Shown one piece after another: positions 4,985 to 56,291 of a DNA stretch of 64,000 nucleotides. The translations under genes were made by a program, and so were the position numbers. This DNA is from Escherichia phage vB_EcoM_SA20RB. The DNA lies in the sequence record OL960581; one strand, 5' to 3'. Positions within the stretch are counted from its first letter, which is position 1, and each line of letters opens with the position of its first letter. The notes beneath the pieces are model-generated. The model was not told the origin of the DNA. It did not search any database and saw only the letters and a program-made list of their open reading frames with translations.

Positions 4985-5161
4985 TCACCCTTTAAGTAAG
5001 TCGTAAAATCCACCATTCACATGCTTAGGAGCGGAAACTAACCGAATAGCAATCCGATGACAATCAGGACATACATCAGTATCCCTTTCAGAAATTTTCT
5101 TGATTTTTTCGTATTCTTTTGCGCAGTCTTTGGATTGACATTTATAATCATAAAGAGGCAT
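4985..5161 (-). CDS. small zinc-ribbon protein (58 aa), not in ORF track
   Basis: hand-translated MPLYDYKCQSKDCAKEYEKIKKISERDTDVCPDCHRIAIRLVSAPKHVNGGFYDLLKG; CxxC..CxxC; AAGGAA SD; start 3 nt after upstream stop. Confidence 0.5.
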   Translation of the reverse strand: MPLYDYKCQSKDCAKEYEKIKKISERDTDVCPDCHRIAIRLVSAPKHVNGGFYDLLKG

Positions 5162-5163
5162 AA

Positions 5164-5583
5164 TTATTCCTTAAAGTGAGCTTTCAACATCTGATACAAT
5201 GACCATGCCTGTTCATTATTTTCAATAATAACTTTCATTACCGGGAATTCTGTGAAATCTTCTATTTGTTCTTGCTCTTCCTGCTCTTGCTCTTCGGCTG
5301 CCTGATATGGATTTTCCACTTCATCAAAGAACCCAGCTTCACTTTTTGAAAGCCAAATAAAGTCTTCATCCAAAACATCTTTACCAGAAGATAGTACTAA
5401 ATTTCCAGTAGATGACAAAATTTTAATAGGACGCCCAAGAGCATCCACATCTAAAATTTTAAAAGGATACATACCTAAACGTCGCGCATAGATTCCGTTA
5501 TCAGTATGGTCTTTAATAAAATTTTCTTGAGCTTGTTTATTTTTAAATTGATACCATTTATTAACTTCAAATTTAATAGCCAT
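5164..5583 (-). CDS. hypothetical protein (139 aa), T4 goF/comC-alpha position
   Basis: ATG start; acidic [10 protein letters not shown] stretch; assignment by position and size only. Confidence 0.45.
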
Positions 5584-5798
5584 TAATAAATTTCCTTCCA
5601 GTAAGTTGTGCCGTCTTCAGTAATTTCACGAAATACACCGTAAATTGGCTGTTTATCACCGACTTTCTCATACACATAAACAGAAGTCAAGTGAGTAAAC
5701 TTGCTAGTATGTTCCTTTTGAACTACTACCAAATTTGGATCAAATAATACATCTTCAAATTCATCATTAGTGCAGTTCTGAACAATTTTACGTTTCAT
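5583..5798 (-). CDS. cef: hypothetical protein (71 aa), T4 cef position and size
   Basis: 71-aa ORF, ATG start, TAATG overlap with downstream gene; assignment by position and size. Confidence 0.45.
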
Positions 5799-5969
5799 TA
5801 CAATTTCCTCATTAATTAAACATTGGAGCGATGCGTTTCAGAAGAGTATCAGCACCTTTAGCGAATTTCCATTTTATTCTCCAAGTTGTTTTCTGTATCA
5901 GTAGTTGATATTGATATAGTACCATAATCAACTACTGATGTATATAGTTTTATGAAAAAATTTTAAACT

Positions 5970-6458
5970 TTATGCATAGAGAGCATTGCTATAGTGTTTA
6001 ATCCAACTTTCAGGAATGACTTTGTATGTTCCTAAAAATACCACATTGTACAGCTTAACACCATCTTCTACCCATTGATCGGTAATGTATCCACACATAG
6101 CACGAGTATAAACAACCCTTCCATCGTCTTTGATAAAGTTAAATTCACAAGGAGCAACGAACTTGATAGCTTGACCGAGTTTCCACTTAAAGTCTACGCC
6201 TACATGCGAAGTATCAATCGTTTCAATTCCTTTAGCAGGAACAGCTTTCAAAAACGCAGACTCAAGAAATTTCGCACGAACATAGCCAAACTGAGGTTTA
6301 GACTTTCCATCTTTAGGAATGATACGCACTTTTACTTCAGAATCTTCATCTTTAACACCGTGTTTAAGCTGAATGCTTACAATTTCAACCAATTTTCCTG
6401 CTGCTTTAGAGCGGGATTTATCAGATACACGAGCTAATTCACCAATATTAATAATCAT
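5970..6458 (-). CDS. motB: MotB-like protein (162 aa)
   Basis: 162-aa ORF with ATG start, downstream of early promoter 6503-6532; size and position match T4 motB. Confidence 0.55.
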   Translation of the reverse strand: MIINIGELARVSDKSRSKAAGKLVEIVSIQLKHGVKDEDSEVKVRIIPKDGKSKPQFGYVRAKFLESAFLKAVPAKGIETIDTSHVGVDFKWKLGQAIKFVAPCEFNFIKDDGRVVYTRAMCGYITDQWVEDGVKLYNVVFLGTYKVIPESWIKHYSNALYA

Positions 6459-6502
6459 AGTTATCTCTCACTTGTTAAAAAGATTTTATACTCCACAGGA
6501 CC

Positions 6503-6532
6503 ATTATACTCTGGTCCCAAGAGTTTGTAAAC
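6503..6532 (-). promoter_or_regulatory. T4-type early promoter
   Basis: plus attata 6503-6508 and gtaaac 6527-6532 (minus GTTTAC..TATAAT). Confidence 0.55.
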
Positions 6533-6534
6533 TA

Positions 6535-7077
6535 TTAATTCAAAATAGCTACCACTGCACTACGAGGTACTACACTAAAATCACCTGCATGAACAACGTT
6601 CAGAAGTTCAACACCATCTTCAATCCACTGGTCTGTTACCCAACCACAGACCGAAATAAATGGGGTCTTGATAACTACAGCACGAGTTAGAAGGTCAGTA
6701 GGATCGCATTCTTGGAAGAGGATAAGCTCTGCTTCAAAGACTATAGTTTTAATTACTTCATCATTATCTAAGCGTTGTGCTCGAATCACGTAAGCTTTAT
6801 TCTTATCATGCCAATTACTTTTTGAAAAACTTTTAACCACAAACTCGCCTTCACCCAAAACACTGGTCAATGCTTTATAACCCAAACTTAGTTCAGTAGT
6901 TTTAATTTCAGTTTCAACCAGTTTGTAGGTTTTGTCAATTTCGATGGTCCGAGCAGTCATAAAAGTTTCCTTAATTTCTAATGGTTTAACAAGAGTGCCG
7001 TATATGCTTGCTATATCCATATCAAATATTTTATCTATAGGATTTGGGGTGTATTCAGGATTATAATTAAATTTCAT
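6535..7077 (-). CDS. MotB paralog (180 aa)
   Basis: C-terminal CGWVTDQWIEDGVELLNVVHAG parallels CGYITDQWVEDGVKLYNVVFLG in 5970..6458. Confidence 0.5.
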   Translation of the reverse strand: MKFNYNPEYTPNPIDKIFDMDIASIYGTLVKPLEIKETFMTARTIEIDKTYKLVETEIKTTELSLGYKALTSVLGEGEFVVKSFSKSNWHDKNKAYVIRAQRLDNDEVIKTIVFEAELILFQECDPTDLLTRAVVIKTPFISVCGWVTDQWIEDGVELLNVVHAGDFSVVPRSAVVAILN

Positions 7078-7079
7078 AA

Positions 7080-7583
7080 TTATCTCATTTCAATAAAATC
7101 TACAAGTTCAGCATGGGATTTGCGGAACATTACTTGATGTCCTCCAATGATAACTTGGTCATCTGGCACTTCGTATACAGCAAGATAAAATCCTTTAGAA
7201 GATAATTCTTCACGCTCTTCTCGGGTGAACCATCTCATCATATCATATTCACTAGCGAAAGCAAAATGATAAAGAGCTATAAACCATCCTGGAATATAGT
7301 GATCTACGCCTACATATTCCTCTTTCTCAAATTTAGTATTAATTGCTATATTAGCATTTTTAACTAATAATTTGTCTTCGCGCGGAAGAGGAATTCTTTT
7401 GTTATCATTACTATGATGCATAAAATTAGGTCTATCATAACCTACGTGTAATAACCACTCTTCGCTCCATGAATCTATTATACTCCTGTATGGCGTTATT
7501 TGAACACAAAGATTTCGACGTATTGTTATAGCATCTTCACAATTAAGAATACTAAAAGATGATTCAACACGATAAATTTTCAT
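7080..7583 (-). CDS. hypothetical protein (167 aa)
   Basis: in-frame ATG at 7581-7583 with GAGGA SD; track start is TTG inside promoter. Confidence 0.5.
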   Translation of the reverse strand: MKIYRVESSFSILNCEDAITIRRNLCVQITPYRSIIDSWSEEWLLHVGYDRPNFMHHSNDNKRIPLPREDKLLVKNANIAINTKFEKEEYVGVDHYIPGWFIALYHFAFASEYDMMRWFTREEREELSSKGFYLAVYEVPDDQVIIGGHQVMFRKSHAELVDFIEMR

Positions 7584-7610
7584 TTTATTATCCTCAGTAG
7601 CTATGATGTT

Positions 7611-7640
7611 ATAATACCACAACTAACCGAGGAAGTAAAC
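7611..7640 (-). promoter_or_regulatory. T4-type early promoter
   Basis: plus ataata 7611-7616, gtaaac 7635-7640. Confidence 0.55.
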
Positions 7641-7646
7641 AACTTT

Positions 7647-8330
7647 TTATCGTTTTGTTGGAAGAGACAGAGGATCGCACTCTTCCTCTGACGGAGCATC
7701 TTCAAGACCCATAGCATATCGCAAAGCATACTTCATCATCAGGATGTCTTTCGCACAGTCATGAATAGAATCATGTGCAACGAATCCATCTAAAGTTCCC
7801 TTTGGAAGGGGGCATGTGGTCATATCACGAACAAGCAGAAGTGCTTCAATTCTGGTACGAATATCACGCTGATTCCAAAATTTACAAGGTTCTAACTTAA
7901 ATGTATCAAGCTCATTCTCGGAAACACCATTAAGACGTTGAATATCGCGAATGAGATCAACTAAAATTGGAAAATCAAACGACATTCCACGGCACCAGCC
8001 TTGAGATTTCCAAGGATCGATGTTATGTGCATTGATGTAATCATTAAATTTTGCAATACCATCGATAGTGCTTACATCTTCATCTGATGGTGCAATATTT
8101 TTTCGAGCTTCGGGAGACTGATTTTTCCACCATTCAATAGTGCTTTTAGTAAAAAGACGATGTCCTTTTTGGCTTTTTAAATCAAACTTGATTTTAATGC
8201 CACGTGAAACTAATTCATCAAATGTTTCAACTACTTCCGGATTAGGGTCAAAGGCAATAACAGCCAAATCAATAACAGCTGCCTTTTCACCGCTTCCCAT
8301 TGTTTCAAAATCTATAATAAAATCAAACAT
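7647..8330 (-). CDS. dexA: exonuclease A (DEDDh 3'-5' exonuclease, 227 aa)
   Basis: 227 aa, DFETMG exonuclease motif, ATG start; size/position match T4 dexA. Confidence 0.8.
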   Translation of the reverse strand: MFDFIIDFETMGSGEKAAVIDLAVIAFDPNPEVVETFDELVSRGIKIKFDLKSQKGHRLFTKSTIEWWKNQSPEARKNIAPSDEDVSTIDGIAKFNDYINAHNIDPWKSQGWCRGMSFDFPILVDLIRDIQRLNGVSENELDTFKLEPCKFWNQRDIRTRIEALLLVRDMTTCPLPKGTLDGFVAHDSIHDCAKDILMMKYALRYAMGLEDAPSEEECDPLSLPTKR

Positions 8331-8572
8331 TAAATTTTCCTCGCTAAATCGCGAATTTGACCTACAGTATAATCTTGGATATAAACTTTATTAATGGGCT
8401 CATCAATAAATTTTGCCATAGATTCAATATCTTTTTGTATCTCTTCAAGACTGTATACTATCTTTAAAGCTTTTTCGCGAATAGTAACATTATCAGGTCC
8501 TGAATTTTCTTGGATGACAGCTTTAATGTTTGCCATAAGAGATTTAAACTGCTGCAAACTTAATTCAATCAT
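8330..8572 (-). CDS. hypothetical protein (80 aa)
   Basis: in-frame ATG at 8570-8572 just after upstream stop (track start GTG 8605). Confidence 0.4.
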   Translation of the reverse strand: MIELSLQQFKSLMANIKAVIQENSGPDNVTIREKALKIVYSLEEIQKDIESMAKFIDEPINKVYIQDYTVGQIRDLARKI

Positions 8573-38854: not shown

Positions 38855-38884
38855 ATCAAATCCTCAAAGGCAATTCATATGTTA

Positions 38885-38914
38885 ATAATACCATAGTTTG
38901 AACTTCTTGTAAAC
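38885..38914 (-). promoter_or_regulatory. T4-type early promoter
   Basis: plus ataata 38885-38890, gtaaac 38909-38914. Confidence 0.5.
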
Positions 38915-50697: not shown

Positions 50698-51225
50698 TTA
50701 TGCGAGTACCGTCTTTAACCGTTCTTCAAACTTCCGAAGAGTATTTTGGCGTTCAGCTCTTTGCTTTTTGTAAGTTTCAATACGCTCTGAAATGAGAGTG
50801 TATCGTTCATTTACTGATTCTTTCATAAAATCAGGAATTTCACGAGAAGCTTTAATCTCGTCAAATTTATCAATAACAGCTTGCTCTTCAGCAATTAAGT
50901 TATCATACATTAAAATATCTTTCTTGATGAACTCAATATCTTCTTGAGTTACACGAGATAATTTAGATGCTTTATCCTTTTTGTACTGTTCGTTAGTATC
51001 ACGAGACCAGTGCAATGTACGATTTTTATTCGTATTTTTGTAAATTTCTACAATACCGATCTCATCAATAATAACGATCCAATTCCAACGGGATTTGTAA
51101 ATTTGTCCTCCATCAACAGTGATTTCACCTCCGATTGAGATGTCGTTAAAGAACTTGCTTTGTGCTTCAGATTTAAATTTACCATCGTTGTAATTTACCA
51201 AGTTGAAAATATCTTTAGCGTTCAT
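50698..51225 (-). CDS. hypothetical protein (175 aa)
   Basis: ATG start downstream of promoter 51255-51283. Confidence 0.5.
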   Translation of the reverse strand: MNAKDIFNLVNYNDGKFKSEAQSKFFNDISIGGEITVDGGQIYKSRWNWIVIIDEIGIVEIYKNTNKNRTLHWSRDTNEQYKKDKASKLSRVTQEDIEFIKKDILMYDNLIAEEQAVIDKFDEIKASREIPDFMKESVNERYTLISERIETYKKQRAERQNTLRKFEERLKTVLA

Positions 51226-51254
51226 TTTGTGTTCCTCCGTAGTTGATAGTTGTA

Positions 51255-51283
51255 TAGTACCACAGAGGAACAGTCTTGTAAAC
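51255..51283 (-). promoter_or_regulatory. T4-type early promoter (cassette family)
   Basis: plus atagta 51255-51260, gtaaac 51278-51283. Confidence 0.5.
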
Positions 51284-52658: not shown

Positions 52659-52701
52659 TTTATTCTCCAAATCCGTATCAGTTGATAGTTGTATAGTACC
52701 A
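52652..52701 (-). repeat. 50-bp leader block of repeated early-promoter cassette, copy 2
   Basis: identical to 24191-24240. Confidence 0.7.
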
Positions 52702-52722
52702 TAAAGCTTTATGCTTGTAAAC
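52694..52722 (-). promoter_or_regulatory. T4-type early promoter (cassette copy)
   Basis: plus atagta 52694-52699, gtaaac 52717-52722. Confidence 0.5.
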
Positions 52723-52745
52723 CGTTTTGTGAAAAAATTTTGAAA

Positions 52746-52770
52746 TAAAAAAGGGAGCCCGAAGGCTCCC
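52746..52770 (-). terminator. rho-independent terminator (UUCG hairpin + U6)
   Basis: gggagcc-cgaa-ggctccc with plus aaaaaa 52746-52751. Confidence 0.65.
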
Positions 52771-52772
52771 TA

Positions 52773-53783
52773 TCATTTATAATAACTTCGGTGGTTTTCA
52801 AGATAAACCCTCTCAAGGAAGTCATCCCAGAAACCCATGTCTACTTTTTGTTGCATACCGTTCTTAGAAGCTTCAATAGATGCTGCTTCTACTTGATCGA
52901 CCACATCTTCCAAAAACTCTTGAACAGTTTTAAATGGATGTTTACCAAGCTTCACGTCGAGAATAAATGGAGCGTCTTGGAGTGGATAGACTAAGTCACC
53001 AGTTTTGTAAATTTCCAATAGTTGGAGTCCACCACGACAAGCATGACTCAGAGCTTTCCAGTCAATACCCTCATTCGCTTCAGCCTTACGAGCACGTTCA
53101 CCATATTCAGCATCAAGTTTATTCAAAGACTGCTTAAGCTCAATAAGAGAAAGAGTTGTCTGATATTTACGACCCAACACAGTGTAGAACGTTTGTGGGC
53201 CTGTTTTCTCATGATTATGGAATACCCATTCACAGAATTCGTTCTCTGGAAGACGATGCTTAATATCTTCAACTTTAGTTCGACGCTGCTTAATGGAACC
53301 GTCTTCTTGGTAATCAACCCATTGCTCAGGGATTTGATTAACTACTTTCAATACATCACGCAATGCGGCCAAACGAGAACCCTTGACACCATATTTAGAA
53401 GCTTGCTTGCGGACATATCCTAAATAAGATTTCATGTTAGTTGTATAAAAACGAGAACGATTGTCTTGAATAAACTTCCACACATCAGGTAAATCAGATT
53501 TAACCACTAGTTCAGGTGGAGTGTGAAGCATATCTAATGCTACGGTTTCACCATCTGCTGCTAATTTAAAGAAATATTTAAGACTGTATAGTTCATGGTC
53601 AATATCATCTTTAGTGTTTTTAGATGATGTGTTGTTGGTATTTTTACTCATATGCTCTTTAACATTTCCGATAAGAATATCACGAGCAGGAGGAACAAAG
53701 ATTTCTTTAAAATCTACATCAGATTCTGGGGTAGAAGTTCCATAAAGATGACTACCAAAATAACTTTTCATTACTGTTTTCAT
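52773..53783 (-). CDS. putative nucleotidyltransferase (Pol-beta superfamily fold, 336 aa)
   Basis: N-terminal GSHLYGTSTPESDVDF matches minimal NTase motif GS-x(9-13)-D-h-D/E-h. Confidence 0.5.
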   Translation of the reverse strand: MKTVMKSYFGSHLYGTSTPESDVDFKEIFVPPARDILIGNVKEHMSKNTNNTSSKNTKDDIDHELYSLKYFFKLAADGETVALDMLHTPPELVVKSDLPDVWKFIQDNRSRFYTTNMKSYLGYVRKQASKYGVKGSRLAALRDVLKVVNQIPEQWVDYQEDGSIKQRRTKVEDIKHRLPENEFCEWVFHNHEKTGPQTFYTVLGRKYQTTLSLIELKQSLNKLDAEYGERARKAEANEGIDWKALSHACRGGLQLLEIYKTGDLVYPLQDAPFILDVKLGKHPFKTVQEFLEDVVDQVEAASIEASKNGMQQKVDMGFWDDFLERVYLENHRSYYK

Positions 53784-56045: not shown

Positions 56046-56233
56046 TATTCCACCACATATGAAAGAGAGAATATTGCACACGCCATATGAGTTGCAGCTT
56101 CATCACACATATCATAACGTTTCTTAAGAAGTTTTTCAAGTTCTTCACTGGTAACTTCATCCATGTTGACGAAAAAATCACCATTAATGATGACGTAGAT
56201 ATTTCCTTCTTGATTAAGTGCTTCAATTTTCAT
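56045..56233 (-). CDS. hypothetical protein (62 aa)
   Basis: ATG 56231-56233 with AGAGGAG SD inside promoter-leader cassette (track start TTG 56278). Confidence 0.45.
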
Positions 56234-56261
56234 GATGTTCTCCTCTTTATCTGATGGTTGT

Positions 56262-56291
56262 ATAGTATCACAGCTCAAATGGAAAGTAAAC
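56262..56291 (-). promoter_or_regulatory. T4-type early promoter (cassette family)
   Basis: plus atagta 56262-56267, gtaaac 56286-56291. Confidence 0.5.

Follow-up and report, generated by a model that had tools for sequence, protein, structure and literature searches.

The sequence analyzed here, referred to as the window, is a 64,000-nucleotide stretch of Escherichia phage vB_EcoM_SA20RB (sequence record OL960581), a Tequatrovirus with 97.5% identity to T4 at the motB-cef locus. All window features described below lie on its minus strand. At this locus motB (5970-6458, identified from the T4 annotation and the ORF list) is separated by a gap of 171 nt from cef (5583-5798, 71 aa), which is recognized by Pfam family PF24050 T4_Cef (E 4.6e-35), by phrog_1354, and by the T4 annotation, and which spans 5583-5810 once its Shine-Dalgarno (SD) sequence GAGG (5807-5810) is included. 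The next gene is goF (5164-5583, T4 annotation). The 1 kb around the gap is matched by 524 phage records, with Escherichia phages G50 and G8 and Yersinia phage fPS-90 (98.6%) as the best matches, and the locus, which is polymorphic among relatives, falls within the dispensable 39-69 region of T4. No Rfam match at E values up to 1 was obtained in 5500-6300. A replication origin at the locus was considered and rejected, the T4 oriA lying near soc instead.

The motB-cef gap holds a cassette that, read on the minus strand, runs from the motB stop codon through AAAATTTTTTCATAAAAC, TATACA, a 17-nt spacer, TGG-TACTAT, ATCAATATCAACTACTGATACAGAAAACAACTT, GGAG, and AATAAA to ATG-GAA-ATT-CGC-TAA. This order recalls the PeSL (promoter-early stem-loop) elements described by Arbiol et al. 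in 2010, which consist of an A/T-rich stretch, a strong sigma-70-like early promoter, a stem-loop, an SD sequence, and a start codon (PMC2839356), and which Comeau et al. extended in 2014 to T4 and PST with the promoter consensus TTTACW-N17-TAYWAT (PMC4122927). The A/T-rich upstream block, which resembles an UP element, is made up of AAAATTTTTTCATAAAAC and its flank (5945-5968) and sits right behind the motB stop codon, where the sequence reads GCA TAA AGTTTAAAATTTTTTCATAAAAC. The -35 hexamer TATACA (5939-5944) is placed 17 nt upstream of an extended -10 (TGG at 5922-5924, TACTAT at 5916-5921) that fits both the TAYWAT of the PST/T4 PeSLs and the TGn of T4 early promoters, and the spacing from this -10 predicts a transcription start at about 5909. 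Between the -10 and GGAG lies the leader ATCAATATCAACTACTGATACAGAAAACAACTT. The GGAG itself (5879-5882), within TTGGAGAATAAAATG, is followed by the ATG (5870-5872) of a mini-ORF of only four codons (5858-5872, MEIR*), which is in turn followed by sequence leading to cef, the first intact gene downstream of the cassette and the presumed beneficiary of its promoter.

An earlier sequence-only reading had described 5870-5935 as a third copy of a promoter and leader block also present near 24.2 kb and 52.7 kb, and alignment confirms that assignment, since the three copies share three collinear blocks on the same strand. The sequence was given correctly in that reading, except that the mini-ORF extends 12 nt past its left coordinate. 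Exact sites for AAAATTTTTTCAYAAAAC, ATGGTACTATA, and TTGGAGAATAAAATG number three each in the window, and when one mismatch is allowed ATGGTACTATA has six matches against 1.37 expected, a count reached in 0 of 100 shuffles. The upstream A/T block is an exact or 17/18 match to the other two copies, and the GGAG-containing block is exact in both. Taken singly the blocks are marginal (blastn-short E 3e-4 to 0.08); taken jointly, in one order and on one strand, they are not chance. Several substitutions and a 9-nt insertion set the leader of the 5.9-kb copy apart from those at 24.2 kb and 52.7 kb. The homology of the 24.2-kb and 5.9-kb copies is bridged by Escherichia phage EC.W5-4 (PP476962; locus L010, 700-812), because its chimeric cassette matches both of them (E 6e-29 and 4e-25, respectively), with a promoter half close to the 24.2-kb copy and a leader half identical to the 5.9-kb copy. 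This arrangement is consistent with recombination inside cassettes at the common motif ATCAACT. The EC.W5-4 cassette is followed by an unrelated gene of 87 aa, which the window lacks. An exact-pattern scan for the cassette in viral contigs returned only two loci.

Two looser relatives of the cassette are found in the window at 51.3 kb (51223-51282, GGTTTACA-N17-TACTATACAACTATCAACTACGGAGG followed by an ATG) and at 56.3 kb (56230-56290, TTTACT-N17-TACTATACAACCATCAG), the latter preceded by a terminator-like stem of the CTCCCGAAGGA type; since these add to the three copies, the promoter and leader family has at least five members in the window. The 52.7-kb copy (52699-52790) carries a perfect 14-nt palindrome, CATAAAGCTTTATG, in its -35/-10 spacer and a canonical terminator hairpin, GGGAGCCTTCGGGCTCCC with a T-run, immediately upstream of its A/T block, features that assign it to a PeSL subclass other than that of the 5.9-kb copy. 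T2 has a second leader of the 5.9-kb type, CTGATACAGAAAACAACTTGGAGAATAAAATGGAA, by the e.8 gene (97% identity over 37 nt; about 2206-2243 in AJ880101 (T2L) and about 38862-38899 in PV958097 (T2)), and so this leader has been reused elsewhere in T-even genomes.

The sequence-only reading had offered two explanations for the mini-ORF, that it was the remnant of a gene the cassette once drove or that it was a leader-peptide element, and a search of relatives recovers the gene required by the first. In phage Pu-Krd-SF5 a 270-nt ORF (89 aa) opens at the same ATG and reaches its stop codon 13 nt before cef, and the intact ORF is likewise present in T2 (T2_009), Ge15, and others. About half of the matching records (261 of a total of about 506) cover at least 80% of the intact-gene query, and the rest are mostly deleted. 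At the protein level, tblastn recovered the same 261 records with at least 95% identity and a further 140, mostly from Klebsiella phages, that align over 98% of the length with about 41% identity; Klebsiella phages contribute 133 of all matches. The 89-aa product matches phrog_3720 (E 2.6e-46), with no Pfam family and no PDB sequence match found for it. In Klebsiella phage phiA85, a Jiaodavirus, the homologue has its own promoter (GTTTACA-N17-TACTAT) and an identical GGAGAATAAAATG. The space between promoter and cef in Tequatrovirus thus belongs to a small early gene, phrog_3720, with a GGAG leader.

What the window retains of this gene is its first 7 nt and its last 50 nt or so. The same is true of T4 and ten other sampled phages, all of which keep ATGGAAA(A) and the end of the ORF and lack the 208 bp between, so that the distance from the -10 to cef is 334 nt with the gene intact, 126 nt in the T4-type deletion, and 125 nt in the window type. 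The endpoints of the deletion are the 11-nt direct repeats ATGGAAAAYTT and ATGTAAAATTY, which agree at 10 of 11 positions (with 7 exact nt in a Ge15-type parent) and of which one copy is kept. The junction, ATGGAAA(A)TTCGC, falls in an A/T run at about 5862-5869, and one additional A of this run is missing in the window, fPS-90, G8, and ELT1, for a total loss of 209 bases. Downstream of the junction, 5812-5861 is the untranslated 3′ tail of the lost gene (once ..KFAKGA.TLLKRIAP.FN-stop), which aligns to the final 50 nt or so of the ORF in Pu-Krd-SF5, T2, and Ge15 and is out of frame with the ATG. The locus thus shows what is expected of a pseudogene: SD, ATG, and 3′ tail are homologous to an intact gene at the same position, 208 + 1 bp are missing, and the frame is broken. 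At least 125 records, T4 and T6 among them, carry the deleted-type junction. Both alleles adjoin the same motB 3′-end variants (Ge15, intact, and pSe_SNUABM_01, deleted, share an unusual end, for example), and therefore the deletion either recurred or spread by recombination.

The reverse order of events, in which an ancestral short allele received the 89-aa gene by later insertion in other phages, gains some credence from other genera, where motB, promoter, and cef follow one another with nothing between and a gene-free state must once have existed. However, the window keeps about 50 nt of the 3′ end of the ORF together with SD and ATG, none of which has a counterpart in the gene-free genera, and the junction is bounded precisely by two direct repeats of the intact gene. 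The remaining sequence is also out of frame and has indels, and Klebsiella phages have full-length homologues with 41% identity. We therefore regard a later insertion as exceedingly improbable.

The four-codon frame itself reads as a scar of this deletion and not as a regulatory peptide. If the mini-ORF were a working leader peptide or upstream ORF and controlled cef through attenuation or translational coupling, this would account for the strong SD and the ATG, both kept in 11 of 12 deletion alleles, and for the position of the ORF in the 5′ leader of cef. The length and sequence of the frame, however, are not conserved. The deletion shifts the frame so that the T4 mini-ORF has 11 codons (MENSLKVLILF*); the extra loss of an A gives MEIR*, or MEIRQRC* in ELT1; in HP3 and JK23, a substitution together with a 2-nt insertion in the relic leads to MDNSLKVR*; and other deletion alleles encode MENSPKVLLLF* or MENLPKVL(L/P/T)LF*. 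In all, frames of 4, 7, 8, or 11 codons and at least six different peptides occur among 12 deletion-carrying sequences, so no leader peptide is conserved. JK23 moreover has GAAG in place of GGAG, and the relic varies among deletion carriers (18 of 68 columns, with 3 gap columns). Nor was the second hallmark of such an element, an alternative RNA structure, found: the ORF has no alternative pairing with the cef SD, and the region from the SD to the ATG of the mini-ORF has an unpaired probability of 0.56 in read-through RNA versus 0.53 in RNA from the cassette's own promoter. As the ORF is wholly accounted for by a frameshifting deletion of a real gene, the leader-peptide half of the sequence-only reading fails, and we consider a regulatory role for the peptide very unlikely.

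The same reading held that the cassette had decayed and that its -35 region no longer matched GTTTAC. The latter is true only in part, since TATACA is a single mismatch from the TTTACA of the other copies. A nonfunctional promoter left to decay after the gene was lost would explain this substitution, the divergence of the leader from the 24.2-kb and 52.7-kb copies noted above, and the absence of the promoter from the list of a simple sigma-70 scan, in which TATACA with TACTAT scores 8/12 and falls below threshold. Against this, promoter and leader, TATACA included, are identical in phages with the gene intact and phages with the gene deleted. In the 68-nt core from the T-run to +24, variation is confined to 3 columns at the 3′ edge. 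The mean pairwise difference is 0.9% in this core versus 5.8% in cef and 7.5% in the relic (which has indels as well), and so the promoter varies about 6-fold less than cef and about 8-fold less than a true relic. The TGn and the A/T-rich upstream block are still present. In addition, an orthologous promoter precedes cef in at least eight other genera in which motB is directly followed by cef (Dhakavirus, Mosigvirus, Kanagawavirus, Marfavirus, Karamvirus, Tegunavirus, Gelderlandvirus, and Jiaodavirus), and in two of these genera the -35 also departs from TTTACA: Dhakavirus IME08 shares both TATACA and GCATAAAGTTTAAAA 3′ of the motB stop, and the Mosigvirus cef promoter has TGTACA. The window promoter is thus the ortholog of the ancestral cef promoter, the Tequatrovirus version of the promoter found between motB and cef throughout the Tevenvirinae, and the decayed-promoter explanation is quite unlikely.

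The sequence records M89919 and AF158101 list no promoter features, and the annotators of fPS-90 predicted an early promoter for motB and none at the cassette. The cassette does have an annotated coding sequence in two phages, a 39-aa ORF initiated by TTG (5812-5931 in the window) that covers the -10, the leader, and the relic tail and is called g009c in fPS-90 and ELT1_26 in ELT1. This CDS is probably spurious and arose in annotating the one-A-shorter allele, because its start lies upstream of the predicted +1 and it has no start codon further downstream. The T-run in the upstream A/T block (5953-5964) ranges from the 5 T of T4, through 6-7 T in most relatives, to 13 T in two phages, sb1 of Shigella and Jbel of Salmonella; its length may tune UP-element strength or may reflect mere slippage. 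The motB promoter (6503-6531) has the form TTTACA-N17-TATAAT and is nearly invariant among relatives, spacer included. It too has an inverted repeat around its -10 (GGGACC..GGTCCT here, GGTCCC in T4), which at 6 bp has a background probability of about 0.09 and is insignificant alone.

The cassette promoter also carries a hairpin (5897-5939), absent from the sequence-only reading, with perfect 13-bp arms, ATCAGTAGTTGAT (5927-5939) and ATCAACTACTGAT (5897-5909), that encloses the -10. Its upstream arm lies in the -35/-10 spacer, and its downstream arm begins at the predicted +1. Because the promoter is inside the hairpin and the downstream arm starts at the predicted +1, the structure would form only in RNA that reads through from motB. 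The predicted RNA fold has a free energy of -20.2 kcal/mol (z -5.5), and 0 of 200 shuffles were as stable; inverted repeats of at least 11 bp around an arbitrary hexamer were met at 0.05% of 20,000 random window positions. Although the hairpin is unvaried in 17 Tequatrovirus sequences, this invariance proves little, because the spacer of the motB promoter is likewise almost invariant. The downstream arm in Tequatrovirus also forms the beginning of the leader that accompanied the phrog_3720 gene. Inverted repeats around the -10 as a general rule for T4-type early promoters were also considered and rejected: the 15 window promoters average 4.1 bp versus a background of 4.0 bp, and among them only the one upstream of cef (13 bp) and PmotB (6 bp) stand out. 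The stem is A/T-rich, with 4 G-C pairs in 13, and is followed by ACAGAAAAC without a U-run, and so it has neither the G+C-rich stem nor the U-run of an intrinsic (Rho-independent) terminator. A terminator scan of 5000-8500 found no terminator-like site.

In the orthologous cef promoters of at least eight other Tevenvirinae genera (loci L020-L027, L033-L062), the -10 is again inside a hairpin, and the stems are different: the arms are AGGGCTAT/ATAGCCCT in PG7 versus AGGGTTAT/ATAACCCT in STP4-a, with GGTAGGAG/CTCCTACC, GGTGTAGG/CCTACACC, and GGTAGAAGAC/GTCTTCTACC as further pairs. Covariation was counted over 14 pairs in 28 distinct non-Tequatrovirus sequences; the window hairpin was left out of this count because the geometry and register of the Tequatrovirus hairpin differ. 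Paired cells made up 75.8%, versus 34-50% with the partner slid, and 10 of the 14 pairs change on both sides. Double-change cells numbered 63 versus 20.5 ± 4.4 in shuffles. These counts demonstrate covariation in the equivalent -10-overlapping hairpin of other genera. The tally of G-U versus A-C cells (14 vs 16) is uninformative as to whether the structure acts as RNA or DNA. In these genera, as in the window, no U-run follows the stem, and the hairpins are therefore not canonical intrinsic terminators. In two distant T4-like viral contigs (L066 and L070), a stem-loop about 60 nt upstream of cef, AAAGAGGT-ttacaag-ACCTCTTT, has a T-run that doubles as the promoter spacer and is a true terminator overlapping a promoter. 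As this stem encloses the -35, TTTACA, the position of the stem-loop shifts along the promoter between lineages.

One function that could be proposed for the hairpin is borrowed from the T4 e, soc, 49, and I-TevI genes, with read-through RNA hiding a ribosome-binding site that RNA from the internal promoter exposes. Predicted unpaired probabilities from the SD to the AUG of cef follow this pattern in four phages, rising from 0.41 in read-through RNA to 0.69 in promoter-initiated RNA in PG7, from 0.18 to 0.71 in STP4-a, from 0.43 to 0.83 in KPN6, and from 0.49 to 0.88 in APCEc01. For read-through RNA of PG7 and STP4-a, pairing is predicted between TTTCCTT of the promoter spacer and GAGGAAA at the cef SD. 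The pairing spacer in these two phages, a Karamvirus (L024, PG7, 372-436) and a Gelderlandvirus (L026, STP4-a, 375-439), is TTTCCTTG and lies just 5′ of the hairpin, an arrangement that resembles the logic of the T4 e and soc hairpins but with an early promoter. The two RNAs do not differ, however, in the window (the 0.56 and 0.53 given above), T2, IME08, Kosakonia 305, phiR1-RT, or PhiKpNIH-6, and the window hairpin stops 14 nt before GGAG. Sequestration of the ribosome-binding site as a general mechanism is rejected, since it was predicted in only 4 of 10 sequences tested, the window not among them, and we judge this scheme unlikely.

The explanation that we consider highly probable is that the gap holds an intact T4 early promoter of the PeSL type and the stump of a phrog_3720 gene truncated by a short-repeat deletion. 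A 208-bp deletion between ATGGAAAAYTT and ATGTAAAATTY removed the body of the gene and shifted its frame in the window, in T4, and in about half of their relatives, and the window then lost one A in the junction run, leaving ATG GAA ATT CGC TAA. The promoter would still fire at about 5909, now serving cef-goF, and the mini-ORF may be translated without having a role. Retention of the promoter through the loss of its gene would be explained because it also serves cef, the next gene, and is still needed for cef-goF. The hairpin would form only in motB read-through RNA, where it may serve for attenuation or insulation, a function reported for one PeSL stem-loop of RB49/phi1. A more ambitious alternative holds that the hairpin is a selected element, an insulator or switch between motB read-through RNA and promoter-started RNA, and, as a separate matter, that loss of the 89-aa gene has been selected repeatedly, for example because a host defence senses its product. 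On this view the hairpin would be maintained by the compensatory changes counted across at least eight Tevenvirinae genera, and the even division of intact and deleted alleles over common motB haplotypes could stem from such recurrent loss; we hold this alternative to be unlikely.

What this analysis adds is small: an explicit anatomy of the deletion, T4 included, some likely spurious CDS calls, and a covariation test. In T4 itself the gene is truncated, and T2 and about half of the T4 relatives have it intact. The locus offers a clean and datable case in which a PeSL cassette lost its gene through a short-repeat deletion and kept its promoter. For annotation, the correction is that the 39-aa TTG-initiated CDS of fPS-90 and ELT1 starts inside a promoter. 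Both PeSL papers give the -10-overlapping subclass without covariation statistics (PMC2839356, PMC4122927), and the cross-genus covariation supplies quantitative support for it. The understanding of T4 early transcription is unchanged.

PeSLs are among the closest known systems, and at the level of sequence the element fits every part of their description, as an ordinary member of a described class. Arbiol et al. distinguished five positional subclasses of stem-loop, overlap with the -10 included, with positions between the -35 and -10 or overlapping the -10 box as the commonest; they proposed that the stem-loop attenuates upstream transcription and reported that one stem-loop from RB49/phi1 lowered lacZ expression to roughly the same extent as the rrnB T1 terminator (PMC2839356). 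The window element has the A/T-rich stretch, right at the motB stop, a sigma-70-like promoter (TATACA-N17-TACTAT with TGG) whose -10 and 17-nt spacing fit the consensus, a 13-bp stem around the -10, and an SD and start codon at its 3′ end (GGAGAATAAAATG). Like other PeSLs it occurs in several copies per genome (24.2 kb and 52.7 kb, and more loosely 51.3 kb and 56.3 kb) and lies in a dispensable, variable, hyperplastic region beside an indel that separates close relatives, and the EC.W5-4 chimera suggests exchange within cassettes. It differs from the PST/T4 consensus in its -35, TATACA, which has one mismatch to TTTACW, and from the G-tract/C-tract stems of RB49/phi1 in having an A/T-rich stem and a 17-nt loop region. 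Some indels near PeSLs have been attributed to recombination between short random repeats (PMC4122927). Unlike indels that run from PeSL to PeSL, the deletion here joins two 11-nt repeats inside coding sequence, and in its 10/11 endpoint repeats, with one copy kept, it resembles the slipped-mispairing deletions between short direct repeats of phages and bacteria and shows nothing unusual. The promoter shares with T4 early promoters (Hinton 2010, PMC2988021) the A/T block, TGn, -10, 17-nt spacer, GGAG-type SD, and minus-strand orientation, with one extra mismatch in its -35.

The hairpins of T4 e, soc, 49, and I-TevI hold late promoters and sequester a ribosome-binding site. The window hairpin is like them in that a promoter lies inside a structure that could form only in read-through RNA, and unlike them in that this promoter is early and the SD lies outside the hairpin.
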